A stretch of 32,000 bases of DNA, taken from NCBI RefSeq assembly GCF_000014265.1, contig NC_008312.1:2160001-2192000 (forward strand). The letters run 5' to 3'. The notes below the pieces were generated by a model. It did no database searches and was not told the DNA's origin. It was given only the letters and a program-made list of their open reading frames with translations. The stretch is from Trichodesmium erythraeum IMS101. Its GTDB lineage: Bacteria > Cyanobacteriota > Cyanobacteriia > Cyanobacteriales > Microcoleaceae. How positions within the stretch are numbered: the first letter of the stretch is position 1; each line of letters begins with the position of its first letter. Below are positions 1 to 25,057 of this stretch, one piece after another. The translations under genes were made by a program, and so were the position numbers.

Positions 1-41
1 TTTAATAATTCTTTTTCTCTTAATTGTTGAATTACTTTTCT

Positions 42-473
42 CTAATCTGGGCATTCTGTTGGTCTTTCTGGGTGCTGGTCAGGACGTGAATATTTGTATG
101 GTTGTTGTTTAAAATCATAGAGTTTGTGGAGTAACCAACGTTCTTGATGATAGTCAGATTTTGGTCTAGGAGTTTGAATAGTATTTAGCCAATCTTGGGG
201 AAATTCTTGAATGATAAATTCCCATTGGCGTTTCAAGTTATAAGTGCGAATATCATGGAATATTTCTTCAGTAAAAATTTGTTTATCACCTATTGATTCG
301 TAATGAGTAACAAGTTTACCATAGTCAAATTTAAAGACTCGATTTGCAACAATTACATCACCTAAAAAAGTCTTTTTTTTATTACCTGCACAAACTCCGG
401 TCATTGCTAAACAACGAGGTTTTAATTCTGAAATAAGTCGAGTGACTAGATTATTAGTGTAGTTTTCTCCCAT
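42..473 (-). CDS. Truncated PNP_UDP-like (nucleosidase-fold) protein, 143 aa; possibly a gene remnant
   Basis: The ORF lies 26 nt downstream of the Roc-COR gene on the same strand. LISELKPRCLAMTGVCAGNKKKTFLGDVIVANRVFKFDYGKL aligns by eye with AIAYFKPDVILFVGVAGGIKDVQLGDVVAATKVYGYESGKV of the 6252..7331 product (central strands of the PNP/MTA-nucleosidase fold). The N-terminal strands and the EME and ISD catalytic segments are missing. The stop lies 41 nt from the window edge. Confidence 0.5.
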   Translation of the reverse strand: MGENYTNNLVTRLISELKPRCLAMTGVCAGNKKKTFLGDVIVANRVFKFDYGKLVTHYESIGDKQIFTEEIFHDIRTYNLKRQWEFIIQEFPQDWLNTIQTPRPKSDYHQERWLLHKLYDFKQQPYKYSRPDQHPERPTECPD

Positions 474-499: not shown

Positions 500-2746
500 T
501 TAATCGCGTACCATATATCTAAGTTTTGATAATAAATCTATATTTATTACATTATCAATTAAACTCTTTATATTAACTTCATTATAAGGATGATTCTCAC
601 AGGTAGTTTTTAGTCTACCATTACGAATCCATTCTTTTAATTTTTCAAGTTTATAAAAATGTGGATTCTGGCTATTTTTACAAGCAGCACAAGTACAAGG
701 AAATAAGTGATTATATTTGAGTCGATTATTATAGGAACTGTGAATTTTATCTAATAGGTAAGTTACGAGAGTCATTAAAGCCCGTTTTTGTCGTCCAGAA
801 ACCCTAATTTTTATTTCTCTTCTGTCGTAATATTCAATTACCTCTGCTCTGGTTTCATTTTGCTTGATAATAACTCCCCTTTTCCAAACATATTTCTGTT
901 GTTCAATATCTCGGTGCATATCTACAATAAACTGAGTGATAATTCCTCTGGGCATAAATTTGTAGGTGTAACGTAAAATCAAATTGTTATTTTCATCCCA
1001 GTCATATTCTGGTTGATTTTCTGTTAAAAGTTGAGGGGCAATATAGGTCTGAGAATTACCAAGAATTTTATAACATAGTTTAAATCTAATCATTAACTGG
1101 AGTAGTTCATCGCGCATATCCACATATTTTTCTTCATTCCAGATATTGGTTAAATCATCTTTGGTGAATTTGCCGAAGTTATTATAAACTGTCGGATTAT
1201 CTAAGATTTTATAAACTGCCGCTATTCCCCATTCTGGTTTGAGAATAACTGTTTTATTTAACAGTGGGTTATCCTGAAAATGAAGACAAATTCCTAAGTC
1301 ATGTAAATAGCGACTTAACTGTAATTTATACTCCAATTTTGTCAAGCCATTTTGTTTACAAATAGATAAATATTCTTCTAGACTAATATAGTTACGGGAG
1401 TCTAATTCTAAGATTTCCCGGACTTGTTTCCAAGTTTTAGGTAAACTACTGCCAATATGGGGTAATTCACTAATATGATGTTCGATTTCTCTGATAATTT
1501 CTTCTAAACCGCGATTAGTTTCAAGGTTGGTAGCTAAGATTTCTTTAATGTTAGTAAATTGCCCTTGCAATCCCCGTTGATTAATTTCTCGTTGCCGTTC
1601 ATGTTTCTCATTTTTCACAATTAATAAGGGGCTATTATCGCTTAATAATTCTACTACATTGAGCCAATAATAAAAGTCTGTATCTTCTTTGCGAGTATCA
1701 ACGACAAGGATATATAGAGAGCGTTTTGTTAAGAAAAATTGGTGGGTAGTGTGATAAATTTCTTGTCCGCCAAAATCCCAAATATTTATTTGAAAGTCAT
1801 TTTGGTTTTTTGTCTTAAAGTTGTACTGATAAACTTCAATTCCTTTGGTTGTATCTTCATCTTTGAGTTGATAGTTTGGGTTGATAATTTTATTAGCTAA
1901 AGCTGTTTTACCAGCTCCAGCTTCTCCAACAATTAGTAATTTAGCTTCACAGATATAATCTATTCCTTTTTCTGGAGGAAACTCTGCCAAAAACTTTTTA
2001 ATAACAGGATGAATTAAGAAAAACTTCTCATTACCTAATTTGACCTCCTCCCCATCTCCAAACTCTTCTTTTAACTCCTCAATTTCCTCCCCTAACCCCT
2101 CCTTTTCATCAACCAATAACTTTGCCAAAACATGAGAATTAAGCACCAAATTTTGATACTCTTTCCATAAATTAGTCTGCTCCAAAGGTTGAGCCAAAAT
2201 CTCCACTAAATAAGGAATTTTTTCTTGACCAGCTAACCCCAAAACCGGATTATCTTCCGGCAAACTTTCAGATAAAAAGCTCTCCATTTCCCGAATTGTC
2301 CTATCGGGATCTAAATAAGCTTGAGCAATCCATTCTTGAACCATTCTTAACTCTCCAGATGGTTTTCTCTCCCCTTGTTTATCCAAATAAAACCACAAAA
2401 ATTCAGCCAATTCAAAAGGTCGTCGCCAACCAAATTTATCCTCCAATTCCTCCAACAAAACTTCCCTCACACAAGGCTCAACCTCATAAACTCCCTCTTG
2501 TAAAGGACGACATAAAGAAGACAACAAAAAATTACTTTCTCCTATCCAAGGAATATTTTCCTCATCCAAAAAATTAATCCGAATTAAATTAACTAATTCA
2601 GGAGTTAAAATCAAAAACAACCCACAATGACAAGCAAGCTTAAAATTTTCTTCTCCAAAACGACGCTCAAATCTTACCACCTCTTCCACGGCATTCTCCG
2701 GAGATAGCCATAGCTTTCTAACAACCGCCTCAATAGTTTTAACCAT
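500..2746 (-). CDS. Roc-COR (Roco-type) GTPase with an uncharacterised ~260-aa N-terminal helical region
   Basis: 748-aa ORF whose start overlaps the vWA stop by 8 nt. It has a Ras-like G domain: G1 LLIVGEAGAGKTAL and G3 IWDFGGQE. The G4 position reads VKNEKHE rather than NKxD. A COR-like region follows (LPKTWKQVREIL ... YLHDLGICLHFQDNPLLNKTVILKPEWGIAAVYKILD). An acidic linker (EEIEELKEEFGDGEE) precedes the G domain, and there is a C-terminal Cys/His cluster CTCAAC...CENH. Confidence 0.85.
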   Translation of the reverse strand: MVKTIEAVVRKLWLSPENAVEEVVRFERRFGEENFKLACHCGLFLILTPELVNLIRINFLDEENIPWIGESNFLLSSLCRPLQEGVYEVEPCVREVLLEELEDKFGWRRPFELAEFLWFYLDKQGERKPSGELRMVQEWIAQAYLDPDRTIREMESFLSESLPEDNPVLGLAGQEKIPYLVEILAQPLEQTNLWKEYQNLVLNSHVLAKLLVDEKEGLGEEIEELKEEFGDGEEVKLGNEKFFLIHPVIKKFLAEFPPEKGIDYICEAKLLIVGEAGAGKTALANKIINPNYQLKDEDTTKGIEVYQYNFKTKNQNDFQINIWDFGGQEIYHTTHQFFLTKRSLYILVVDTRKEDTDFYYWLNVVELLSDNSPLLIVKNEKHERQREINQRGLQGQFTNIKEILATNLETNRGLEEIIREIEHHISELPHIGSSLPKTWKQVREILELDSRNYISLEEYLSICKQNGLTKLEYKLQLSRYLHDLGICLHFQDNPLLNKTVILKPEWGIAAVYKILDNPTVYNNFGKFTKDDLTNIWNEEKYVDMRDELLQLMIRFKLCYKILGNSQTYIAPQLLTENQPEYDWDENNNLILRYTYKFMPRGIITQFIVDMHRDIEQQKYVWKRGVIIKQNETRAEVIEYYDRREIKIRVSGRQKRALMTLVTYLLDKIHSSYNNRLKYNHLFPCTCAACKNSQNPHFYKLEKLKEWIRNGRLKTTCENHPYNEVNIKSLIDNVINIDLLSKLRYMVRD

Positions 2747-3899
2747 GCAAATTAACTCCCATTGGAAAAGGATATCCTAACAATATTTTAACCAAATCAT
2801 TTAATCCTTGTGGATTTAAAGAATACATAGGAATAAACGTAGCAATATCTTCAGCAGTGGTCATCCTCCACTGAAATTCTGGAACAGGGTTTAACCATCC
2901 ATATAAATAAGTTTTATCAGATAATTGCCGTATAAATTCCTTAGTTTGATGGAATCTTTCACTATCATAAGTGCGCCGTGCCGCCCCCCCATCACTAACA
3001 ATAACCACACTATTATTACCAACTTCCTGAGATAAAATTTCCTCAATAGGCAAAGGCTTAGTTAAATTAGGTTTAGTAAATAGATAACCCCTCGGCACAT
3101 TGTGAAAATAAAAAATATTCTTTTGATTTAACAACCCTACTTTTTCAATACTTTCCTGTAAAGTATCAATCAACAATTTAAAAGGAGACATGGAACCTTC
3201 ACAGTCAATTAACAAAACCAACTTAACTTGATTTTTTCTAGAAGGTTGTAAAACCACACCAGAGAAAAAACCCATTTTATAAAATAGATTAATTGTTCCT
3301 TGAACATCTAAATTTTCCGGCGCACCCTCTCGTTTTAACAACCTTAAATTACGCCAAATACTAGTCATTTCTCGGCGAGTTATTGGTAAACGGGGAATCA
3401 AATTATAACTTTGTCTAAATCTCAGTTTTATTGGGGTTATTTCTGACAGAGATTTTCTCGAAAAATCGCGAATTGGGATTGAATTAGTTGGTTGATTAGG
3501 TTGAGGTTTATTTTCCTTTTGAACTTTAGATGAAACTTGAGAAATAGGATTACTATTAATATCTAAATTTTCAGTCTTTTGAGGAGGAGAAGTAGAATCC
3601 TCATCAATTTTAGGCAATGGAGATTTATCAGCTTCTAGTAATTGCTTTTCTAACTCAGGTCTAACTAACTCCTCAAACAATTGATTAAAAATATATTGGT
3701 CTTCTAAAGACTTAACCCATAACAAACATAAAAGTCGTTTTAAACGTTCAATATCCTGCCACGCCCCTCGAGATTGAATCATTTTAATCGCCAGTAAATA
3801 TTCAGAAATTCCCACGGGAATATCCTTTTGCCTCAACCTATTAAATAAAGGCAATAAAATAGTTTCAAATTCAACGATTAATAATTCAAAGTCAACCAT
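2739..3899 (-). CDS. vWA-domain protein, CoxE-like N-terminal region
   Basis: 386-aa ORF. The C-terminal half shows vWA hallmarks: KLVLLIDCEGSMSPF (MIDAS-like, but D-x-E-x-S instead of D-x-S-x-S) and NSVVIVSDGGA. The N-terminal helical part (FNRLRQKDIPVGISEYLLAIKMI...) resembles CoxE-type vWA proteins. A P/S/N/Q-rich linker lies between the two. The gene is paired with a MoxR gene upstream, which is the classic arrangement. Confidence 0.8.
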   Translation of the reverse strand: MVDFELLIVEFETILLPLFNRLRQKDIPVGISEYLLAIKMIQSRGAWQDIERLKRLLCLLWVKSLEDQYIFNQLFEELVRPELEKQLLEADKSPLPKIDEDSTSPPQKTENLDINSNPISQVSSKVQKENKPQPNQPTNSIPIRDFSRKSLSEITPIKLRFRQSYNLIPRLPITRREMTSIWRNLRLLKREGAPENLDVQGTINLFYKMGFFSGVVLQPSRKNQVKLVLLIDCEGSMSPFKLLIDTLQESIEKVGLLNQKNIFYFHNVPRGYLFTKPNLTKPLPIEEILSQEVGNNSVVIVSDGGAARRTYDSERFHQTKEFIRQLSDKTYLYGWLNPVPEFQWRMTTAEDIATFIPMYSLNPQGLNDLVKILLGYPFPMGVNLHG

Positions 3900-4062
3900 T
3901 TATTAATTTTCAGCTTATCTACTGGTTTGGTATTGGATTTTGTTGCTTTATTAGTGTTTAGTTTCGCGAATCAACCAAATCTAAGCTCTTTTACCTCAAC
4001 CTATTAAATAAAGGCAATAAAAGAGCTTCAAATTCAACAATTAATAATTCAAAATCAATCAT
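3831..4062. repeat. Direct duplication of the vWA gene 5' end (69-bp copies at 3831-3899 and 3994-4062, offset 163 bp)
   Basis: The two copies differ at 5 of 69 positions. Copy 2 encodes a relic start, MIDFELLIVEFEALLLPLFNRLR-stop. Its ATG (4062-4060) overlaps the MoxR stop (4057-4055) in an ATGATTGA arrangement. Confidence 0.9.
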
Positions 4063-5092
4063 TTTTTAACTTTTCTATAGTATTTTGGTCACTTTGATTT
4101 TTTACTAAAGTATGGAGAAAAGGAAGTTGATATAATTTAGTCTCCCTTAAAACTTCAGCTTTGATTTCCTGATACTCCTGAGTTGTATTATTTGGCAATC
4201 CTCTTTCTAAAAGTCGCAACCAATTAATAAACTCTCCCGTACTAGGTTTTTTCCGCCAAGAAATATCGTCACGAAGTTCTACAAATTTAGTTAAAGCAAC
4301 TTCAAAAAGAGGAGAAACATCCTGTTGAAAATGATTAATAATAATCTTCCTCAAATCCTCCTTATTCGGAAAGCCAATATAATAAAACAGACAGCGACGT
4401 AAAAAAGCCTTAGGTAATTCTTTCTCTTGATTACTCGTAATAATAATCAAAGGCAAAAAATCCTTTCTGTCTTCCCGCTCCTCTCCTCGAAGAGCATCAT
4501 ATTTCAAGTTTTTTACCTCCTTTACTTCAAACTGTAACCTATCTAAAACCAACAGTAAATCATTAGGAAAATCAATATCAGCCTTATCAACTTCATCAAC
4601 CAAAACCACCGAAGGAATATTATTTTTATCAGAAAGCTCAATAGCCTCTCCTAACTTGCCCAACTCTATATATGTTTCCCGGTCAATAACATTAGTTACT
4701 TGAGGTGAATTATTAATATCTTTCTCCTCTAATTTACCCTGAATCAATCTATATTCTTGAAGGTCATATAAACGGCGAATATTATCATAAGTATAGAGTA
4801 ATTCTTCAGCCCGAATCGTAGAACGAATATAACATTCTTTCAAAGGATAACCCAACTCATAAGCAATAGAATAAGCAAGACGAGTTTTACCACAACCAGG
4901 TTCACCTTCCAACAATAAAGGGCGGCGTAAATAGAGAGCATCATTGACTGCCTCAGCCAAATTTTTAGAAGCAATATAAGGTTCTTTTTTTATGGGTATA
5001 TCTAGAAATTCTTTCCCCTTTTCGTCTTTTAATCGTTCATACTTTTGGTCATTACCTTGACCTTCATATTGTCTATTTGCTAAGTCGTTCAT
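4055..5092 (-). CDS. MoxR-type (AAA_5-like) AAA+ ATPase
   Basis: 345-aa ORF with Walker A LLLEGEPGCGKTRLA, Walker B PSVVLVDEVDKADIDFPNDLL, a sensor-1-like IIITSNQ, and arginines in LPKAFLRRC. It sits directly upstream of a vWA gene. Confidence 0.9.
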   Translation of the reverse strand: MNDLANRQYEGQGNDQKYERLKDEKGKEFLDIPIKKEPYIASKNLAEAVNDALYLRRPLLLEGEPGCGKTRLAYSIAYELGYPLKECYIRSTIRAEELLYTYDNIRRLYDLQEYRLIQGKLEEKDINNSPQVTNVIDRETYIELGKLGEAIELSDKNNIPSVVLVDEVDKADIDFPNDLLLVLDRLQFEVKEVKNLKYDALRGEEREDRKDFLPLIIITSNQEKELPKAFLRRCLFYYIGFPNKEDLRKIIINHFQQDVSPLFEVALTKFVELRDDISWRKKPSTGEFINWLRLLERGLPNNTTQEYQEIKAEVLRETKLYQLPFLHTLVKNQSDQNTIEKLKND

Positions 5093-5107
5093 TTTTTCAA
5101 TATTTTT

Positions 5108-6181
5108 TCAATTAATTGCTCGTAGTTCGTCAATAATTCCTTCAAGAGTATTATAAGTAGAAAGCAAATGACCATCAGCATTTCTTAACTTTCTAAGGCA
5201 TGTATTTATCATATCATCTTGTATCTGTAATTTTTGAAGATAACCCCTAAACCAGTCACATAATTCATTAATTTGAAATGATTTAGGTATGCTCAGGTTA
5301 ATACAACCCTGAATAGATTGTTTTATCTTAACATTAGCAAAAATAATAATTAAACAGCGACTTTTATTTTCTAAATAGCAATTACATTTCGTTTTTATTT
5401 CTGATAAAAAAATATCTGTCATCGAATTTAAATTTTTTTTATTGATATTGTAATTCCAAATTATTAATACAACATCTAAAGGATCAGTCTCAGCTAATAA
5501 ATCAGTTATTTGATTTATGTTGTTATTTTTTAAGTCATCATCAATTGATTTTAAATTCCGACTCAATCTAATCTCACGAGACCAATAATCACGTTGAGTT
5601 TTCTCCTGTAATTCGTGGAGAATTCTCTCAATAATATAATTCTTTAAAATTGTGTACTCTTCCCCAAGACTAAAAGCAAAAACTCCTTGATAATCTAATG
5701 CTTTTCTAAATTTGTAGACTAACTCATCTAAATCATATTTAACAATTATATTGTTATCTTTATTATTATCTTTATTATTATCTTTTATTTTGATAGGTGT
5801 TTTAGATGTCGGTATTTCATGGTTTTGTTGCCTTTTTTTAGACATACGTGAACGATGATCAGGAATTTGGTTTATTCGCGATCGCTTGGGCTTAAGTTTT
5901 TCAATATATCCTTTGATAGTCAATCTTTCATCTGGATCTAATTTATTTTGCAAATATATCAAAAAAGATTCTAAATCTTCTGGTTTCTTTAAAATTAAGC
6001 TATAAAAATTAGTGACTAACTCTTTCACAGGTAACTTGTAATCTATTGTCGTTATATCAATTTGTACCTCACTAATATTTATCATTGCTTTTAAACCTTC
6101 GCTAGGTTTTTCTAGCCCATTAAAATAGTCAGTTAAAATTTCCTCTAACTTAATTTTTTCATCAATACTCAACTTGAACAT
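5108..6181 (-). CDS. Adaptor protein: N-terminal effector-associated-type domain, KDNN repeat linker, C-terminal degenerate NTPase-like domain (function unknown)
   Basis: 357-aa ORF that ends 15 nt upstream of the MoxR start. Residues ~9-80 are about 50% identical to the C-terminus of the 6252..7331 product. The linker contains KDNNKDNNKDNN, encoded by 3 x 12 bp at 5752-5787. The C-terminal part shows strand-helix patterns reminiscent of a P-loop NTPase without a P-loop (GVFAFSLGEEYTILKNYII; DVVLIIWNYN; CLIIIFANV). Confidence 0.7.
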   Translation of the reverse strand: MFKLSIDEKIKLEEILTDYFNGLEKPSEGLKAMINISEVQIDITTIDYKLPVKELVTNFYSLILKKPEDLESFLIYLQNKLDPDERLTIKGYIEKLKPKRSRINQIPDHRSRMSKKRQQNHEIPTSKTPIKIKDNNKDNNKDNNIIVKYDLDELVYKFRKALDYQGVFAFSLGEEYTILKNYIIERILHELQEKTQRDYWSREIRLSRNLKSIDDDLKNNNINQITDLLAETDPLDVVLIIWNYNINKKNLNSMTDIFLSEIKTKCNCYLENKSRCLIIIFANVKIKQSIQGCINLSIPKSFQINELCDWFRGYLQKLQIQDDMINTCLRKLRNADGHLLSTYNTLEGIIDELRAIN

Positions 6182-6251
6182 AAATCAGCTTATACCGGTT
6201 TTACTTTAACTATAATTTACTATTGATATAGAGTGGTAAATATCCCCATCA

Positions 6252-7331
6252 TTACCGAATCATTGCAATGATTTTATTAACAAATAATTGTTCATCAGAA
6301 TCTTTAAGTAAATGACTCCGAAAAACTCTCAGAAAAGATAGAGAATTCTCCCTACTTTTAAAAATTTCAGGATAAAAATTAGGAATTAACTCTCTCACAG
6401 GTAAATTGTAATCTATTGCCGCTGTATCAACCTGTATCTGACTAATATTTACTAATGACTTTAAATGTTGACCAGGTTTCTGCCGAGCATTAAAATAGTC
6501 AATTAAAACCTCTTGTAATTTCATACTTTCCTCAAAATTATCAGCCAAAAAATTAGAAGACTTTGGATGACTTTCCCCATTATATTCTTGATTTCTACTT
6601 AACCAAAACTTCCCTAAAACCTCAAAAGCAAAAGCACTAGCATGACGAGCAGCTATTTCTTGAAAACCCCCTTCATCCGCCCTACTTTTCCCATCAATTA
6701 AATCAGAAATACCCCGAATAATTAAAGCCGAAACCTGTTGATTAGCATGAGCAACTTTTAAAATACCATGACCTTCCATTTCCACTGCTAAAGCATCACC
6801 ATAATTGTGCTGAAGAAACTCAAATAAATCTGATTTCTTATTAGTAACCACCTTTTCTCCCGCAGCAATAGGCTCAACAAATACATTAGGTTGAGCTGAA
6901 TCAGAAAATCTAGCTAACCAATCTCTTTTTCTTGCCTCAGCTTTTGCCCGTTGAATCAAATTATAAGTTGAACGGCCAACATCCGGCCTTGGCCTAAAAG
7001 TCTCAGCCACCTTTCCCGACTCATAACCATAAACCTTAGTAGCAGCAACCACATCTCCCAATTGGACATCCTTAATTCCTCCAGCTACCCCAACAAATAG
7101 AATCACATCAGGCTTAAAATAAGCGATCGCTCTCTCAGCCTCCATCGCTGCAGGAGAATTTCCAGCACCAGTCTGGACAATACCCACTTCCCACTCTTGG
7201 CCACCAACAGAAAATTGGCCCCTCTCATAAATTGTCCCATTAGGGTGTATCTCCTCCCTCAAATCACTAAGATGAGCAGATACCGCCATATATTCGATAC
7301 GAATTGCTGTTAAAATAACCGCACAAACCAT
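6252..7331 (-). CDS. PNP_UDP_1-family nucleosidase/phosphorylase fused to a C-terminal effector-associated-type domain
   Basis: 359-aa ORF and first gene of the cassette. Residues 1-~240 form a complete MTA/SAH-nucleosidase-like fold (VQTGAGNSPAA, ILFVGVAGGI, LAVEMEGHG, IIRGISDLIDG). The EME and ISD motifs match the catalytic Glu and Asp motifs of E. coli MTAN. Residues ~270-359 form a helical domain homologous to the N-terminus of the next gene. Confidence 0.85.
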   Translation of the reverse strand: MVCAVILTAIRIEYMAVSAHLSDLREEIHPNGTIYERGQFSVGGQEWEVGIVQTGAGNSPAAMEAERAIAYFKPDVILFVGVAGGIKDVQLGDVVAATKVYGYESGKVAETFRPRPDVGRSTYNLIQRAKAEARKRDWLARFSDSAQPNVFVEPIAAGEKVVTNKKSDLFEFLQHNYGDALAVEMEGHGILKVAHANQQVSALIIRGISDLIDGKSRADEGGFQEIAARHASAFAFEVLGKFWLSRNQEYNGESHPKSSNFLADNFEESMKLQEVLIDYFNARQKPGQHLKSLVNISQIQVDTAAIDYNLPVRELIPNFYPEIFKSRENSLSFLRVFRSHLLKDSDEQLFVNKIIAMIR

Positions 7332-7469
7332 AGCTTTTACCTAGTTGTAATTGAATTGCTTTGTATTATGGTAATTTATTTTTAAAAGTGTAAAAATAGA
7401 ACAATTTTTCAAGAAACTTTAACTGATTTAAAATATTGCTCAATAGACTCTATTACCAACTTATTAAAG

Positions 7470-7682
7470 GTAAACATTCAGCACTTAAAAAATCAGCTCT
7501 CAGGTTTTGAATTTATGCAAGTAACTACTAAGGTTACCTGATGACCAATTACATAACATACCTAATATACGGATGCTGTCTAAACAAACTTTTTAATTCT
7601 CCTTAGAGACTAATTCCTACTTCCAATATAATCAGTGAATAACTCATAGCTAATAGCTGAATTCTAATCCCTGAATGCTTAC
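7470..7682. mobile_element. MITE-like element, copy A (213 bp)
   Basis: Terminal inverted repeats are GTAAACATTCAG ... CTGAATGCTTAC. The internal sequence (e.g. AACTACTAAGGTTACCTGATGACCAATTACATAACA) is about 75% identical to a second copy at 16512-16769. There is no coding capacity. Confidence 0.65.
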
Positions 7683-7778
7683 TATTAGAGTGAATATTAT
7701 ATTCAGGCGATCGCATAAAATAATATTGCCTAATTGATAATTATATTAACCCAGTAATTTTAGCCGTCAAAAAAATCC

Positions 7779-8330
7779 ATGAACGACAAAAAAACCATAC
7801 TTCAAGCTTTTCTACTCGAATATGAAAAATTGAAAGAAGAGCAACTAAAACGTATTGAATTCCGAGACCAAATGATTTATATAACCCTAGGAATATTTGG
7901 TAGCATTCTCTCCTTTGCTCTATCAAACAAAACTAATTTGTATGCCCTCTTAGTTATTCCTTGGGTTTGCCTAATTCTCGGTTGGACTTATATAGTTAAT
8001 GACGAAAAAATTTCAGCTATCGGAAAATATATTCGACTGACTCTCACTGAAAAAGTCAAAACACAAACAGATTATTCAGATATAGAATCTATATTTAGTT
8101 GGGAAATTGCTCATAGAAGTGATAAAAGAAGAAAAAGGCGCAAAATAGAGCAGTTAATTATTGATGAAATTACCTTTGTTTTCTCTGGTTTAGTAGCTTT
8201 ATTTACTTTCTGGTCTCTAGAGACAAATCTTCCCTTAGTAATTCATATATTTTGTACCTTTGAACTTCTTCTATTAGCAGTTCTAGCCATAGAAATTATC
8301 ATTTATGCCGATCTAGCTAAAGGTCGATAA
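7779..8330 (+). CDS. Hypothetical 4-TM membrane protein with an N-terminal amphipathic/coiled segment
   Basis: 183-aa ORF divergent from the cassette. Hydrophobic segments are IYITLGIFGSILSFAL, LYALLVIPWVCLILGWTYIV, ITFVFSGLVALFTFWSL and VIHIFCTFELLLLAVLAIEIIIYA. A basic loop reads HRSDKRRKRRK. I did not recognise a family. Confidence 0.55.
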   Translation: MNDKKTILQAFLLEYEKLKEEQLKRIEFRDQMIYITLGIFGSILSFALSNKTNLYALLVIPWVCLILGWTYIVNDEKISAIGKYIRLTLTEKVKTQTDYSDIESIFSWEIAHRSDKRRKRRKIEQLIIDEITFVFSGLVALFTFWSLETNLPLVIHIFCTFELLLLAVLAIEIIIYADLAKGR

Positions 8331-8559: not shown

Positions 8560-9562
8560 ATGAGTTAACAAACAATTTATAAAAGCAGAATTATTTACTG
8601 AATAATACTTTAATATAGCCATCCGTATTTCTTATGTAAAATCACACGCCTTCAATTAAAATAGCTTTAACTCCTGTGACTTCAACATAAGTGACTCCTG
8701 GGTTAAAATAGCAATTTTTACTTTTCAAATACAAAACTTCTGCCTTCTGCTGTCAAGCCAAAAATATCCCTATTCTAGATTAATGAAAACTGCTATAAAA
8801 CTAGGAAAAAATCTGAGCGATCGCTGCTTTTAGCCACATCAGAAAGTCTAGTTAACCAATCAACAGATATATACTATATACAGTAGATTCTAAGTAATCC
8901 TGTAACCCCACCATAAATGTACCCAAACAAGCTGTCCTCAACCTTCTGAGAAACTTACAATTATCTACATAAATATCTGAAGATCCTCACCCTATATCAA
9001 TTCTATTCAGTGCTTCACTCTGGCAAGGTTTTTTGGTAGTTATTGGGGTGCAATTCAGTTTTGAATTCAAGTAGCATGAATAAAGATAATTACAGACTAT
9101 CATAGAGAATAACAGATTATAGCCAACAGCTTACATGCCCTCAAATACCCAATCAAAGAATATTGTATTCAACTAACCAAAATACTCTTCAAAAAAACCT
9201 ACAATAATCTGAAAAATCTATTATTATCTCTTCTGTGGATATTCGATTATATTTCTCAGAGTTATCCTATTCCTATTCGCTAATTTCAATAGCCTACTCA
9301 ATCTGGTAAATTTTTATCTATAGTATAGACCTATACTTATAAGCGCAGAACATAATATAGGAGCATAGTAATTATTACTCAAAGACATTTATATCATTCT
9401 ATCTATAAACTAGGATAAATTCTATAAATTTGCTTTCCTTGAAATTACCAAACACCTATCATTACTGAAAATTTATTAACTCAAATTAAAATTACAATCG
9501 CCCAGTATATGATAATCTAATTTTTTATACGATAAATTTGCTGTTGTACAGAGGGAAAAAAA

Positions 9563-11223: not shown

Positions 11224-11295
11224 GCGGGTATAGCTCAGTGGTAGAGCGCAACCTTGCCAAGGTTGATGTCGCGCGTTCGAATCGCGTTACCCGCT
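11224..11295 (+). tRNA. tRNA-Gly (anticodon GCC)
   Basis: It folds by hand into a cloverleaf. The acceptor stem is GCGGGTA/TACCCGC, the D arm GCTC-AGTGGTA-GAGC, and the anticodon arm CAACC-TTGCCAA-GGTTG. The T arm is GCGCG-TTCGAAT-CGCGT. CCA is not encoded. Confidence 0.95.
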
Positions 11296-17666: not shown

Positions 17667-19061
17667 TTAATGCAAATAATTTGATATTATATACTGCTTC
17701 AGCACAGCTAAAACAGCAAATAAATTATCTTGTTTTGTTACTAAACAACGTCTTTTTAATGATTGTATTCCTTTCCATAAATCTGAGTGTAAAAGTGGAA
17801 AGTCTGGGGAAGTATTATAAATATCTACTGCTGTTTCTTGACTTGCCATCCATAATATTACTTGCTTTTCTAGCTCTGACAAACGCTGAAAATATTTGTC
17901 TAATATCGGTTCTAAATCTCCTAAATATATACTAGGGCAAGATAAAATTTGAGCTATATTTCCATTAAATAAATCTTCGACCGCATCAGCAATAATATTT
18001 AACCACAAAGGATTTCCGCTATAGAGATTAATCAACTCTAAGGATTGCTCTTCATCTGTTAAGTTTATATCTTTTAAAATTGCTACTGCTGACTTTCCTA
18101 AACCATCAATTTTTAAAGTCTGACAATGATTATTAGTTGATATTATTTTTGGTTTTTCTTGACTCAGAAGTAACAAACAACTTTGATGAGATAATGTAGC
18201 TATTTGTTGGAAAAATTTACCATAATTTTCATGTTCTTGCAGATAAGTACCAGCTAGTTTTCCACTAGCAAAAATTTCTTGTAAATTATCAAAAATAAGT
18301 AAACAACGATATTTCCGGAGGTAATCTATTAATTGATTGTTGATGGTTTGAGACTTAGAAATTTTTTCTTTTTTTTGGGATGTAAAATCTGTTTGAGATA
18401 AAAATTTAAGAATGTTTATTTGTAGAGATTCACAGGAGGAGTAGTTGTCAATATTGCGCCAGATTATATAATCAAATTTATTTTTTATTTGTGCAATTAA
18501 TTCTACAGTGAGAGTACTTTTGCCGATGCCAGTTAATCCTAATATGGTGATGATGCGGCTGTGATTTTGTAGTATCAATTGTTTGAGGGTGGTAACTTCG
18601 GAGTGGCGATCGCACAGGGGATATAAATCAGGAGCTTCAGATAAATCATAATAATTTTCTGGGTTAGTGTTGTCTTGGTTTTGGTCAATGAGAGTGGGGG
18701 AAGATTTGTTTTTAGGGGTGGGAGATTGTTTGTTTTCTCCACAGATATTTATATGATTACTATTAATATTTACGCAGTCATCACCTGTATTTGAAATATG
18801 TGAAAAGTGGATTTTTTCTAATATGGAACGAGCATTAGATTTTTTGATATTTTTTCCTAAAATATCCGAAAGAAGTTTCCATAATTTTGTACCTACCTGT
18901 TTGATATGGTCGGGATGACGTTGACAATCATCTGCTATTTGGGGGTATTTTTTACCATTTAAAGTACCTTTTAATACTTCCTTTTGTAGAGAGGTTAAAT
19001 GTTCTCTAGTTTTGGTGAATATTAAATTGTCTGCTAATTCTACTAATGTGTCAATGTCCAT
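17667..19061 (-). CDS. NB-ARC/STAND ATPase with an N-terminal HTH-like domain and no C-terminal sensor repeats
   Basis: 464-aa ORF. The N-terminus (LTSLQKEVLKGTLNGKKYPQIADDCQ...IKQVGTKLWKLLSDILGKNIKKSNARSILEKI) is the HTH-like module common at the start of cyanobacterial STAND/WD40 proteins. Walker A is ITILGLTGIGKSTL, Walker B is RCLLIFDNLQ, and the GxP motif is YSGNPLWLNIIA. A winged-helix-like tail (LSELEKQVILWMA) follows. The stop lies 31 nt from the IS630 relic end. Confidence 0.85.
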   Translation of the reverse strand: MDIDTLVELADNLIFTKTREHLTSLQKEVLKGTLNGKKYPQIADDCQRHPDHIKQVGTKLWKLLSDILGKNIKKSNARSILEKIHFSHISNTGDDCVNINSNHINICGENKQSPTPKNKSSPTLIDQNQDNTNPENYYDLSEAPDLYPLCDRHSEVTTLKQLILQNHSRIITILGLTGIGKSTLTVELIAQIKNKFDYIIWRNIDNYSSCESLQINILKFLSQTDFTSQKKEKISKSQTINNQLIDYLRKYRCLLIFDNLQEIFASGKLAGTYLQEHENYGKFFQQIATLSHQSCLLLLSQEKPKIISTNNHCQTLKIDGLGKSAVAILKDINLTDEEQSLELINLYSGNPLWLNIIADAVEDLFNGNIAQILSCPSIYLGDLEPILDKYFQRLSELEKQVILWMASQETAVDIYNTSPDFPLLHSDLWKGIQSLKRRCLVTKQDNLFAVLAVLKQYIISNYLH

Positions 19062-19544: not shown

Positions 19545-21449
19545 CTATAATTTTGACTTCCCATCTCTTTTCCCTGAATTCAAAATCTTCACAGTAGCTC
19601 CATCATTCAACTTCTGTAAACCCGAAACAATCAAATTATCCCCAGGCTCTAAACCAGACATTACCTCAGTCATATCACCCTTAACCAAACCCAACTCAAT
19701 TATTTGACGCCTTGCCTTTTGCTCTTCACCTTCTCCCTCCAACAAATACACAAACCGTGTTTCCCCTTCAAAACCCACTGCTGTCATCGGCACAACTACA
19801 GCTTGACGCTGCTCCCAAATCACATTAGTTTGCACAAACTGACCGTCTTGTAACTTTCCAGAACTATTATCCACATCTACCTTAACCAAAACAGTTTGAG
19901 AATCACTAACAGTAGGAGAAATAAAACTAACCTTACCCATTCCCAAAACCTTACCTTCAGGACTCCTAACCTCCACAGGTAAACCCAACCACAAATCTCC
20001 TAGTCGCTCTAACGGAATTAGTAAATTTACACTCAATACCTGATTTGCCGTCACAGTAGTCATAATGTCACCATCATTAACAAAATCCCCAATCTTCACA
20101 ATCATATCTCCAATCACACCTGCAAAAGGAGCTACAACTACTGTCTCCTCAAACTCAGCCTGCCAACTATCTACCTCTGCTAATGCTGCTGCTACCTCTG
20201 CCAAGCCCTCAGCAATTTCTTCAGGGCGAGTGCCATTTTGCAACTCTTCTAAATTACTACGAGCCTCCGCTACCTCCGCCTCTGCCCTAGCAATTTCTTC
20301 AAGGCGAGTGCCATTTTGCAACTCCTCTAAATTATTGCGAGCCTCCCCTACCTCCGCCTCTACCCTAGTAATTTCTTCAGGGCGAGTACCATTTTTTAGC
20401 CTTCTCAATATCTGGCGTTGTTGTTCTACCGCTGCTTCTAATGTTTGAATTGTAGATTCTCTATTTCTTTGCAATTGCGTCACTCGTCTTTTTGCTTCTT
20501 CTACCCTTGCCTGAGCTGCTTTCTCTTCTTGAAAAATTTCCTGAAAAGTTAACTCAGCGATCGCTCCTTCTGCTCTTAAGTTTTGGTTTCGCTTGACTTG
20601 TTCACTAGCTAATTCTAATTCTGCCTGTTGTACTTTTATTTGCGCTTTTGCTTGGGCAATTTCTTCTAAAAGACCACCGGATCTAGCATTTTCTAATCGT
20701 ACTTTTGCCTCTTGTAATTCTGCTTTTGCTTGAGCAATCTCTTCATCACGAGTACCCGCCCGCAGTTCAGCTAACCTAGCCTGAGATTGCTGGAGACGGG
20801 CTCTGGCTGCTGCAATTTTTTCTGGTCGCGTGCCTCTTTTCATTTCAGCCAACCTAGCCTGAGATTGTTGGAGACGGGCTCTAGCTGCTGCAATTTTTTC
20901 TGGTCTTGCTCCTATTCTCAGTTGTGCTAAACGTGCTTCACTTTGTTGGAGGTTAGCTTTGGCTCTCTTTAAGTTGGCTTCCACATTATCACTTTTGAGT
21001 TTAGCGATCGCCTGCCCTTCAGAGACAAAAGTTCCTTCCTTTACTAAAATTTCTACCACCCTACCATCTATTTCTGGCTTAATTTTAATAGACCGCGTTG
21101 CCTCCATCGTTCCCACAAATTCTGAAGTTTCTTGGAGGGAGATAGTTTTTATTGGCATTACTTTAACCAGAGTACTTCTTCGTCTACTTGGCGGTACTGC
21201 TGATGTTTCGTTTGGTGTTTTATTGCTATGAGATTGCCACCATTGTCCTCCCACGAATCCTACTCCGAGAGTTGTAGTAATTATTGTTGCCAAAAGTAGA
21301 ACAGAAAAATTCTTTTTGTCAGATCGATACCATTGAGGAATCGTATTTTTTTCCTCTTGATATAATTCTGTTTTAGTATTTTCTTGTAAATTTTCTATGG
21401 ATCTAAGTTTTTCTTGAACAGCTGAATTTGATGAATTATGAGTTAGCAT
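19545..21449 (-). CDS. HlyD/MFP-family periplasmic adaptor subunit with an expanded coiled-coil hairpin
   Basis: 634-aa ORF with an N-terminal TM segment (FSVLLLATIITTTLGVGFVGG) and a lipoyl-like IKPEIDGRVVEILVKEGTFVSEGQAIAKL. The C-terminal beta-barrel/MP region reads VVVAPFAGVIGDMIVKIGDFV ... . The central region contains about 7 copies of a 26-aa unit (G-T-R-P-E-E-I-A-x-A-x-A-x-L...), encoded by 78-bp repeats. Confidence 0.85.
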   Translation of the reverse strand: MLTHNSSNSAVQEKLRSIENLQENTKTELYQEEKNTIPQWYRSDKKNFSVLLLATIITTTLGVGFVGGQWWQSHSNKTPNETSAVPPSRRRSTLVKVMPIKTISLQETSEFVGTMEATRSIKIKPEIDGRVVEILVKEGTFVSEGQAIAKLKSDNVEANLKRAKANLQQSEARLAQLRIGARPEKIAAARARLQQSQARLAEMKRGTRPEKIAAARARLQQSQARLAELRAGTRDEEIAQAKAELQEAKVRLENARSGGLLEEIAQAKAQIKVQQAELELASEQVKRNQNLRAEGAIAELTFQEIFQEEKAAQARVEEAKRRVTQLQRNRESTIQTLEAAVEQQRQILRRLKNGTRPEEITRVEAEVGEARNNLEELQNGTRLEEIARAEAEVAEARSNLEELQNGTRPEEIAEGLAEVAAALAEVDSWQAEFEETVVVAPFAGVIGDMIVKIGDFVNDGDIMTTVTANQVLSVNLLIPLERLGDLWLGLPVEVRSPEGKVLGMGKVSFISPTVSDSQTVLVKVDVDNSSGKLQDGQFVQTNVIWEQRQAVVVPMTAVGFEGETRFVYLLEGEGEEQKARRQIIELGLVKGDMTEVMSGLEPGDNLIVSGLQKLNDGATVKILNSGKRDGKSKL

Positions 21450-23388: not shown

Positions 23389-25057
23389 CTATACGCAATC
23401 TTGATTAACAATTTTCTGATATTTTTTATTAAAAATAACTAACTTATCTCGTTTTTTAATAACTATCATTGACAACCTAAAATTCATTTGTATGGTGCCA
23501 TTATTAACTTTAATTTCTACCTGTAATAATTTTTTTTGATATGGCCTAAATAATTGATGTGCGAGTAGAATTTTACTGAGTAAATAATGGCGAGTATATT
23601 TTAAATGAGTAGACTGATTTTTATCCTTCCAATCTGTCAAAATATGTTATTTTATCAAACTATCAATATCTAGTTGATTAGTACCTAAAAAATCAATAAT
23701 AATTTTACAAATTTTTTGACTTAAAAAAGGTTGATTACCACTCCTATCAAAAACTTTTTATCAAACAGCTTCTAGTTCATCAACCACTCCTTTTAAAACC
23801 TCAGTTAATTTTTTTCATCTTTAAAAGTTAACTGTCTTAATTCAATCCCATTATTAATATTAAAAGGAGTCTGTTTGCTATCTATAACCAAATCTTCTGG
23901 AGTTGCTGCTCCAAAAAAACAAAAACTAACCATTGTAATTAATTTTATAGCTTCTAATTGATGTAATTCAATATTTTTATTTGGTAAACTTAAAGGTGAA
24001 ATAGCTTTTAATATTTGACTAAAAACTGCTTTAATATTTTTCTGATTAGACAAATTTTTAAATGTGCACTTAAATGTTGTTGATAGATTCCACTTTCAGT
24101 AGTAGTAGTATATTTTAATAGCTCTTCAATTGTTAATTCATCCTCCAACATTTTATACAATTCTAATCTGATTAAATAGGGATGACCTCTTATTATAGAC
24201 ATCAAAGAAACTACTACTGTTATTGGTAATTTATATAAATCTGCTAACTTAGTGACTTGCTCTGGTATAAATTCTTTTAATTCTATAGGTAAACCAACAT
24301 TAAAAGGAGAAAGATGAATATCTAATTTGCCATAATATTCTGTAGAATAAGCAATTACCATTCGTAAATTTTCCAAAATTTCTTTATGGTTGCTCGCCTC
24401 ATACCAACTTTTTAATATGAGAAAAAAGTCTCTAGATATTTCTGGATAGTTAAAAATTTTATCGACTTCATCTAAGATTAAAACTACTACTTTATCTTAA
24501 TGATATAAGAGATCCTCAATTTTTTCAGTTCAAGATATTTTACCATTTTTGTCGTCCCATCTATTCCTGTTAGGAGCATCAGGAAACTGACGTTTAATAT
24601 TTTTACTGAATGCTTTAATAAAATTATTAATATTTTTAATATTTTCTAGTTCAATTAGTTTGTCAAATCTGAGATAAATAGATTTATATTTATTTTTAAT
24701 TGCATGAGCTTCTATCTGCGTTAATAGAGAATTTATACCCATTTGTTTTGGCATTTTAATTTTGATTAAACAATCAGGAACTTCTATATTTTTATAGTAT
24801 TTTTCTTCGATATAACATTTTCTAATTCGATAACTTTCTATATAAAAAGCAGAATCTAGTTTTTCTTGTCTACCAGGAATTACAATTTTGCGAGCACTAG
24901 AAAAATATTTATCTTTCAACTTCTGACAAACTAAGTAGGGTTGATATTTATTGAATATTTCTACTAAAAAATCTTGAGACTATTGAGCATAACTATAGTT
25001 TTTTGAAAAACCAAATTTAACAGCGATCGCCTTTAATTTTTTACTGATATTTGTCAT
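23389..25057 (-). pseudogene. One or two decayed AAA_35-like (PF14516-type) conflict-system NTPase genes
   Basis: The collinear minus-strand fragments are as follows. The P-loop region is IKIKMPKQMGINSLL (24530..24919). Next come SPFNVGLPIELKEF...IIRGHPYLIRLELYKM...ESGIYQQHLSAHL (24008..24376) and FFGAATPEDLVIDSKQTPFNINNGIELRQLTF (23805..24053). The last two are GNQPFLSQKICKII (~23700) and TDWKDKNQSTHLKYTRHYLL (23389..23640). Stops and frameshifts separate them. Confidence 0.5.

Follow-up and report, generated by a model that had tools for sequence, protein, structure and literature searches.

What is the function of a nucleosidase that is fused to an adaptor domain and encoded beside the components of a conflict system? 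This question is raised by a gene of the cyanobacterium Trichodesmium erythraeum IMS101, located in a stretch of 32,000 nucleotides (contig NC_008312.1, positions 2,160,001 to 2,192,000; hereafter named the window). A single open reading frame (ORF) with an ATG start spans exactly positions 6252-7331 of the minus strand and encodes a 359-residue protein, hereafter named PNP-EAD, with an N-terminal PNP/nucleosidase domain and a C-terminal EAD8 adaptor. An earlier note on this DNA had considered the protein as an effector candidate that may deplete ATP, dATP or another nucleotide. The observation behind that note was confirmed, and its interpretation is supported as far as sequence analysis reaches. 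We propose, with a probability of about 0.6, that PNP-EAD is an ATP/dATP nucleosidase acting as a suicide effector of an iSTAND2-type MoxR-vWA system and switched on by adaptor recruitment. We infer its substrate, its activation by induced proximity and its role in defence.

The nucleosidase domain (residues 1-250, nt 6582-7331, minus strand) is of a Cap17-clade-like type and is followed by a short linker and the EAD. It matches Pfam PNP_UDP_1 over residues 5-238 (E=9.3e-27, 94.4 bits against a cutoff of 25.1), covering positions 3-231 of the 233 of the profile, and its nearest solved structures are methylthioadenosine/S-adenosylhomocysteine (MTA/SAH) nucleosidases (MTANs; E about 1e-13). The motifs on which the earlier note had based a PNP/MTAN-like assignment are all present, GVAGG at residues 81-85, VEMEG at 183-187 and RGISD at 206-210. 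Residue equivalences were taken from a multiple alignment with E. coli MtnN, whose reference sequence is 100% identical to the annotated mtnN, and with a 505-residue Cap17 of a cyclic-oligonucleotide-based antiphage signalling system (CBASS), encoded on an E. cloacae plasmid beside the CBASS cyclase gene. In this alignment, E186 in VEMEG (codon 6774-6776, minus) corresponds to MtnN E174 and Cap17 E449, and D210 in RGISD, the general acid (codon 6702-6704, minus), to MtnN D197 and Cap17 D472. The catalytic Glu and Asp reported previously are therefore both conserved; overlooked at the time was the N-terminal catalytic Glu, the general base E13 (codon 7293-7295, minus), which is conserved as well and aligns with MtnN E12 and Cap17 E253. 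Across 74 homologues, E186 is invariant and E13 near-invariant and, together with D210, all three catalytic residues are invariant or nearly so. The expectation of conserved catalytic residues is borne out by the match of E13, E186 and D210 to both MtnN and Cap17.

For the PNP-EAD gene, the ratio of non-synonymous to synonymous substitution rates (dN/dS) is 0.20 in the comparison with Trichodesmium MAG_R02 and 0.30 in that with Okeania; for the PNP domain alone it is 0.23. Because dN/dS is low and the catalytic residues are conserved, the gene is considered real and maintained, its catalytic residues being intact at the level of the sequence. An AlphaFold model of PNP-EAD, built from an alignment of 74 sequences, has a pLDDT of 67, with residues 85-213 below 50. 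Foldseek searches with this model recovered MTANs at E about 1e-9, but with a root-mean-square deviation of about 16 Å; entries of the MtnN E12Q and D197N mutants were present among the structural matches, and Cap17 or DtcC structures were absent from the top 50 matches of this poor model.

The comparison with MtnN and Cap17 indicates which branch of the family is concerned. E. coli MtnN (Pfs) has the same fold, the same positions of the catalytic triad and the nearest solved structures. On the other hand, MtnN is a stand-alone enzyme, whereas the PNP domain of the window is adaptor-fused, does not reach the cutoff of either NCBIfam equivalog of MtnN (NF004079 and TIGR01704; scores of 85.8 bits where 169 are required and 55.5 where 73.8 are) and lies outside the MtnN clade. 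A neighbour-joining (NJ) tree was computed from 243 columns with 200 bootstrap replicates; it included seven MtnN, DeoD and four CBASS-adjacent Cap17, without DtcC, and a Bradyrhizobium plasmid PNP that aligned as gaps was disregarded. The seven MtnN sequences form a clade of their own (85% bootstrap) that leaves out the window PNP. The window clade, a Streptomyces PNP-TPR protein, the four CBASS Cap17 and Okeania PNP2 stand apart from MtnN with a bootstrap of 71.5%.

Two basic residues, K87 (Cap17 R331) and R115 (Cap17 R362), are common to the window PNP and all four Cap17 but not to MtnN. The seven MtnN have A, H, I, D or N at the position of K87 and L, V, I or T at that of R115 (small, hydrophobic or uncharged). 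R115 belongs to a PRP motif that MtnN does not have. Residues T8, N58, Y103, E159 and G207 are also found in the window PNP and in all four Cap17 but not in MtnN, and the motifs ILTA, GN, YES, PRP and RGISD are common to the window PNP and Cap17. We take the positions aligned with K87 and R115 to line the 5'-alkylthio pocket of MtnN, and the R115 loop is presumably the MTAN segment that enters the 5'-substituent pocket of the neighbouring subunit. If this loop also reaches the partner subunit here, the triphosphate site would need dimerisation, and a dimer-dependent site would in turn provide a simple route to activation by adaptor-driven clustering.

The architectures of related proteins point in the same direction. 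The PNP domain matches the PADLOC CBASS PN-effector profile (E=1e-18) as well as the candidate family PDC-M60C. PNP domains 66-72% identical to that of the window are fused to Cap17-like_N/TPALS, NB-ARC STAND, TIR/SEFIR, FGE-sulfatase and GUN4, and also to iSTAND, EAD1, EAD8 and bDLD1; the paralogues carry STAND, TIR, TPALS and Death-like domains. The published Cap17 clade of PNP domains includes CBASS, NLR (STAND-type)/Avs and FGE-sulfatase architectures (Rousset et al. 2023, bioRxiv 10.1101/2023.01.24.525353). In the same study, Cap17, DtcC and the PNP domains of a fungus and a sponge were found to be toxic ATP/dATP N-glycosidases, these four tested members preferring ATP, then dATP, and the Cap17 D472A substitution abolished both CBASS defence and ATP loss, D353 being the DtcC counterpart (Rousset et al. 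2023). The window PNP is like Cap17 and DtcC in its PNP_UDP_1 fold, in its conserved Glu/Glu/Asp set, including the D472 equivalent, and in its immune-type architecture. It would differ in its mode of activation, with an EAD8 and a MoxR-vWA-iSTAND platform where Cap17 has a cyclic-oligonucleotide-binding TPALS domain and DtcC is served by a phosphorylated receiver. A metagenome contig (L132, positions 4074-7803) carries a TPALS(Cap17-like_N)-PNP protein, P0059, with a PNP domain about 70% identical to that of the window. A SMODS nucleotidyltransferase gene lies about 1 kb upstream, and the P0059 gene is directly adjoined by a divergent gene for a 279-residue protein with N-terminal transmembrane (TM) segments. 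This locus is a cyanobacterial CBASS-like relative that uses the same PNP clade.

How could such a domain be recruited? The C-terminal part of PNP-EAD (residues 262-359, nt 6255-6548, minus) appears twice in the locus. Its residues 266-351 share 47% identity (E=8e-23) with the product of the next gene (5108-6181, minus), there over residues 6-89, so the claim that the nucleosidase is fused to an adaptor domain holds. At the DNA level, the copy in the PNP gene (6300-6535) and that in the iSTAND-like gene (5930-6165, minus) form a direct repeat of 236 nt, 70% identical, with a spacing of 370 nt. The similarity of the repeats varies by lineage, from the 70% of the window to 77% in Okeania and 88% in Trichodesmium MAG_R02, and this variation suggests gene conversion. 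EAD repeat segments were also seen at positions 8797-8958 and 9167-9328 of locus L006.

Neither EAD copy of the window has a Pfam match, EAD8 (PF19961) included, even at E<10. Jackhmmer searches started from the window EAD reach P0159 (E=6e-24), which scores 32.1 bits on Pfam EAD8 (cutoff 27), and also the EAD8 of P0048. Through these intermediates, the C-terminal domain of PNP-EAD is assigned as a divergent EAD8. The EAD region consists of five helices in both structure models (pLDDT about 90). Paired copies, one on the core component and one on the adjacent enzyme, occur in the window, Okeania, Gomphosphaeria and Trichodesmium MAG_R02, in line with the published definition of an EAD, in which one copy is carried by a core component and a closely related copy by the enzyme of an adjacent gene (Kaur et al. 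2020, PMC7159879). The arrangement in the window, with a small all-helical domain found once on the platform protein and once on the enzyme, is reminiscent of adaptor signalling by animal Death-fold proteins and inflammasomes and implies homotypic recruitment. No sequence relationship of the window EAD to Death, CARD or Pyrin domains was detectable in the searches made, the folds of the isolated domains not having been compared.

Two further loci show other arrangements of these domains. A 610-residue metagenome protein, P0003, joins PNP, a single chimeric EAD (crossover ...LPVREL|VTNF...) and an inactive STAND; recombination between the two EAD repeats would yield just such a protein but, coming from one 2-kb contig, P0003 could be an assembly artefact. 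In Okeania sp. SIO3B5 (L002, 5722-9721), three extra genes lie between the TM gene described below and the PNP-EAD gene; they encode an EAD8 protein, a 182-residue protein and an EAD8-PNP2 protein. A canonical EAD8 recurs on the 924-residue vWA-L protein of Okeania, and two distinct EAD8 variants coexist in one locus.

The protein carrying the partner EAD, hereafter the third component, has 357 residues (5108-6181, minus) and is iSTAND2-like. It comprises a divergent EAD8 (residues 1-97, nt 5891-6181, minus), a disordered linker and an inactive STAND/AAA+-like domain (residues 141-357, nt 5111-5761, minus). The alpha/beta domain was modelled with a pLDDT of 88, and Foldseek matched it to Cdc6/Orc1, TRIP13, NSF, the plant NLR NRC3, Dark and the AAA+ domain of Sir3 (E about 1e-4). 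A word-indexed search gave just 23 close relatives; an exhaustive profile search with a hidden Markov model (HMM) was then used and found 142. The Walker A motif (GxxxxGK[ST]) is present in none of 103 family members, and the Walker B strand ends in W-N. At their N-termini, family members carry EAD8, TIR, trypsin, EAD1, bDLD1, bDLD3, PNP (in two members), EAD2, EAD10 or CHAT domains.

None of the 103 members matches Pfam iSTAND (PF19995) at E≤1e-3. The family can be linked to the Pfam-defined iSTAND of P0053 by profiles (hhalign E=1.3e-4, probability 54%; own HMM E=2e-8). The iSTAND2 domain has been described as distinct from, yet related to, iSTAND (Kaur et al. 2021, PMC8195603); a link seen by profiles only is therefore consistent with iSTAND2. 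Direct PNP-iSTAND fusions were found in P0053, P0241 and P0265. In P0053, the PNP is fused to a Pfam iSTAND and the gene is followed by those of a MoxR-like AAA+ and of a vWA-FGE-sulfatase protein. The dN/dS of the EAD-iSTAND gene is 0.63; a conserved PNP (0.23) next to a fast EAD-iSTAND (0.63) is what one would expect if a conserved effector is paired with a rapidly evolving sensor. A truncated third component in Trichodesmium MAG_R02 was considered and ruled out, the apparent truncation being a 100-N scaffold gap and not a deletion.

The PNP-EAD gene is the first of five genes. A promoter-like sequence, TTTACA-N18-CATAAT, lies at 7365-7394 (minus), about 35 nt 5' of its start codon, and is conserved upstream of the PNP orthologues of Trichodesmium MAG_R02 and Okeania. 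This site is the joint-top consensus match (10/12 positions); taken as a whole, the promoter and terminator scans did not yield more sites than shuffled sequence did. The conservation of this site is consistent with the PNP gene heading the operon. The earlier description of an operon of signalling NTPases headed by the PNP gene stands as to the gene order but needs correction in one respect, one of the 'NTPases' being the inactive STAND domain. As had been stated, the operon is without any methionine or purine salvage gene.

Downstream of the third component, the operon encodes a 345-residue MoxR-type AAA+ ATPase (4055-5092, minus; Pfam AAA_5, best PDB matches Midasin and CbbQ) with intact Walker A (GEPGCGKT) and Walker B (VVLVDEVD) motifs. 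Next comes a 386-residue vWA protein with a CoxE-type N-terminal region (2739-3899, minus; weak VWA_CoxE and SAV_2336 N-terminal matches). The vWA gene follows MoxR in all four loci that have the cassette. The last gene (500-2746, minus), which overlaps the vWA gene by 8 nt, encodes a 748-residue protein with a vWA-L-like N-terminal domain (residues 1-255, nt 1982-2746, minus) and a Roc-COR module (residues 269-732; Pfam Roc, COR-A and COR-B; PDB matches Roco and LRRK2). The EAD, iSTAND-like and vWA-L-like domains have no match in Pfam, NCBIfam or PADLOC.

The vWA-L-like domain follows the vWA gene in 4/4 cassette loci. Its homologues elsewhere carry LRR, PNP, TIR, FGE-sulfatase or TPR outputs and, in Okeania, it is fused to a second PNP type and EAD8. 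From this position and behaviour, and not from sequence, we infer that it is the published vWA-L. Other Trichodesmium proteins (P0284, P0286 and P0290) have the same N-domain, 94-98% identical up to about residue 258, followed by leucine-rich repeats at the point where the window protein runs directly into Roc. The output module on the vWA-L-like domain hence varies even within the genus, as judged from these proteins. At the edge of the window, positions 1-473 (minus) hold a relic of the second PNP type, which has a large insert (PNP2, PADLOC PDC-M60C-like). The relic has lost its N-terminus, contains an in-frame TAG where Okeania has TGG (Trp), continues in frame past this stop and runs to the window edge; it matches residues ~315-458 of the 924-residue vWA-L-PNP2-EAD8 protein of Okeania. 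In the window lineage, the front of the PNP2 gene seems to have given way to the Roc-COR module.

Overall, the operon fits the iSTAND and iSTAND2 MoxR-vWA ternary conflict systems with EADs, known from comparative genomics (Kaur et al. 2020, PMC7159879; 2021, PMC8195603). The likeness was established from the published description, and the operon may be of either type. In common with these systems are the order of the genes (third component, MoxR and vWA, followed by a separate gene for a linker domain with variable C-terminal outputs), a third component made of an N-terminal EAD and an inactive STAND beside a gene joining the same EAD to an enzyme, the CoxE-type N-terminus of the vWA protein and the filamentous cyanobacterial host. 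The window differs from described iSTAND2 systems in its enzyme, a PNPase, where mainly trypsin-like and rarely cNMP cyclase domains are listed (Kaur et al. 2021), and in the Roc-COR on its linker, which was not found among the effectors named by Kaur et al. In addition, its EAD8 and its inactive STAND are both below the Pfam EAD8 and iSTAND thresholds. The class of system, the adaptor principle and the immune PNP clade are already published; some new detail comes from the PNPase on EAD8 with an iSTAND2-like platform, the Roc-COR on the linker and the TM partner.

The cassette is conserved beyond T. erythraeum. The nearest genome match is Trichodesmium sp. MAG_R02 (96%), and the 34/34 related genome loci are cyanobacterial, mostly filamentous. 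The five genes are found in Trichodesmium, Okeania sp. SIO3B5 and Gomphosphaeria aponina, in flanking contexts that differ. Identities to the Okeania and Gomphosphaeria proteins are, respectively, 87% and 76% for the PNP domain, 84% and 75% for MoxR, 86% and 71% for the vWA-L-like domain, 80% and 69% for vWA, and 67% and 44% for the inactive STAND domain.

A sixth gene deserves attention. Divergent from the PNP gene, positions 7779-8330 of the plus strand encode a 183-residue protein of no named family, with four predicted TM segments (hereafter the TM protein). Scans of Pfam, NCBIfam and PADLOC and a PDB profile search gave no relative, and no SLATT match was found with the Pfam and PADLOC models. 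Nine aligned sequences are 60-84% identical, with invariant polar residues, acidic ones among them, in or near the TM helices (listed as P61, W62, N74, D75, D129, E162, E172 and D178). Homologues are present in 19/34 genome loci retrieved with the PNP, 15 of them directly upstream and divergent, and a relative lies upstream of the P0053 PNP-iSTAND system (E=1e-95).

The reciprocal search, seeded with the TM protein, gave 80 metagenome loci. A PNP gene is divergent within 1.5 kb in 31 of them and lies elsewhere in the locus in 24 more, mostly immediately adjacent as far as coordinates tell. The flank is too short to judge in 18/80, and 7/80 have no PNP by our own HMM. Of these seven, one has a Pfam-detectable PNP just downstream, one a SEFIR/TIR-NB-ARC gene and one a MoxR-like AAA+ gene. 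In at least 56 of the 62 assessable loci, the TM protein thus occurs together with a PNP gene, regardless of the PNP fusion partner. Members of the family lie at 7779-8330 (plus) in the window and at 7271-7864 in locus L051; loci L006-L039 and L052-L131 were also considered. The TM protein was not found in the Gomphosphaeria cassette, nor at the four CBASS Cap17 loci examined, which is a further difference between these and the window. The idea that the TM gene is a housekeeping neighbour belonging to a psbZ-ribH block, the synteny seen in Trichodesmium and Okeania, was rejected because the pairing with PNP persists in genera without that synteny and in the TM-seeded metagenome loci.

In the mechanism that we propose, the PNP domain, as a PNP/MTAN of the Cap17 clade, would most likely cleave the N-glycosidic bond of ATP/dATP. 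The EAD8 of PNP-EAD would bind the matching EAD8 on the third component, whose inactive STAND is predicted to be a sensing and oligomerising platform working with the MoxR AAA+ chaperone and the vWA protein. An invader signal would lead to assembly of the platform, which would bring PNP domains together and render them active; in MTAN-type enzymes, the active site is completed by the partner subunit of the dimer. ATP depletion would then result in arrest or death of the infected cell. The Roc-COR GTPase on the vWA-L-like linker, as a second output, and the four-TM partner are probably involved in the same response.

Several points weigh against this proposal. The active-site geometry was judged from alignments alone because the AlphaFold model of the PNP domain is poor; the grouping with Cap17 comes from a small NJ tree and its support is only moderate; and percent identity is non-discriminating, with 31.6% to Cap17 and 31.1% to E. 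coli MtnN. The PNP2 relic with its in-frame stop makes part of the locus a decaying one, and a search of the literature brought up no experimental work on iSTAND or iSTAND2 systems. Moreover, PNPase domains on the third component have been read as signal generators, not terminal effectors (Kaur et al. 2020), and the pairing of the TM protein with PNP genes in both sets of loci keeps alive the older proposal of PNPase products signalling to a membrane effector. In such a reading, a base or ribose-phosphate product of PNP-EAD, or a local change in nucleotides, would activate the Roc-COR arm, the four-TM partner (acting as a pore or channel) or both. Enzymatic domains on the third component have also been described as signalling domains, and SLATT 2-TM proteins have been noted beside PNPase and TIR effectors (Kaur et al.). 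We consider this reading unlikely, although it deserves to be taken seriously: no partner is needed for the toxicity and ATP depletion caused by isolated PNP domains of Cap17, DtcC and eukaryotes, EAD8 is classed among the effector-recruiting adaptors and not with the signalling enzymes (Kaur et al. 2020), and the TM protein, which no Pfam or PADLOC model (SLATT included) matches, is missing from the Gomphosphaeria copy of the cassette. A somewhat more speculative idea, which we rate as rather unlikely, is a two-gene effector module of the cyanobacterial immune PNP branch. The product of the nucleosidase, or the collapse of ATP, would gate the TM protein, or the TM protein would restrain the nucleosidase; plugged through its self-matching EAD8 into the MoxR-vWA-iSTAND2 sensor, such a module would offer Trichodesmium a route to the cell death that infection or stress triggers in blooms.

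If PNP-EAD is toxic by itself, ATP might still not be its target. The cyanobacterial clade shares only about 31% identity with the characterised Cap17, stands well apart as a separate branch of the NJ tree and has pocket positions unlike those of Cap17 (e.g. R67, K107, R128 and K215), so that a nucleosidase or phosphorylase depleting or modifying something else, such as AMP, NAD+ or GTP, is conceivable. This appears improbable in view of the preference of the four tested members, from bacteria, a fungus and a sponge, for ATP and then dATP, and of the two basic residues common to Cap17 and the window but missing in MtnN. Decay of the system in this genome, with a PNP-EAD gene that is no longer useful, would agree with the adjacent truncated PNP2 relic and its in-frame stop and with the fragmented AAA_35 gene and long non-coding stretches of the window. 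It is nonetheless very improbable: all five operon ORFs are intact, as are the catalytic residues, dN/dS is 0.2-0.4 for PNP-EAD, MoxR and vWA, and copies 96-97% identical occur in independent marine metagenomes and one metagenome-assembled genome. Hardly credible is a housekeeping MTA/SAH nucleosidase (Pfs/MtnN) located here by chance. The best PDB and NCBIfam matches are named MTANs, and homologues are publicly annotated as MTA/SAH nucleosidases; yet the domain is below both MtnN equivalog cutoffs and outside the MtnN clade, is joined to a conflict-system adaptor within a ternary system, has paralogues fused to TIR, STAND, Death-like and other domains, and carries basic residues where the aligned MtnN have small or hydrophobic ones.

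The window as a whole has a G+C content of about 32% and contains long non-coding stretches and a HIP1 site. An AAA_35-family gene (23389-24919, minus) is broken up, leaving at least two ORFs (24530-24919 and 24008-24376) that each have a TTG 'start', and is likely a pseudogene within a 7-kb stretch without a long ORF. A 464-residue NB-ARC-type STAND NTPase (17667-19061, minus), with no recognisable repeat or sensor domain following, could be another conflict-system gene or a truncated one. A 917-residue protein (28783-31536, minus) contains DUF4347, FG-GAP repeats and RTX calcium-binding repeats, and an HlyD-family membrane-fusion protein with a long Ala/Glu/Arg-rich repeat region (19545-21449) is reported as adjoining it. 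The sole Rfam match in the window is a tRNA-Gly(GCC) at 11224-11295 (plus), just 3' of ribH.

Experimental evidence of immunity by ATP nucleosidases is confined to CBASS Cap17, Detocs DtcC and two eukaryotic domains. If PNP-EAD is indeed an ATP/dATP nucleosidase recruited by its adaptor, this form of immunity would also be at work in multicellular bacteria, in their large MoxR-vWA ternary systems. Being compact, the locus would suit a test of the adaptor hypothesis, with one enzyme, one adaptor pair, natural fusions (P0053 and possibly P0003) and clear catalytic mutants. Trichodesmium is a globally important nitrogen-fixing bloom former, known for programmed cell death. The conserved TM partner is a concrete new lead, which could decide whether immune PNP domains are depletion effectors or signal generators.

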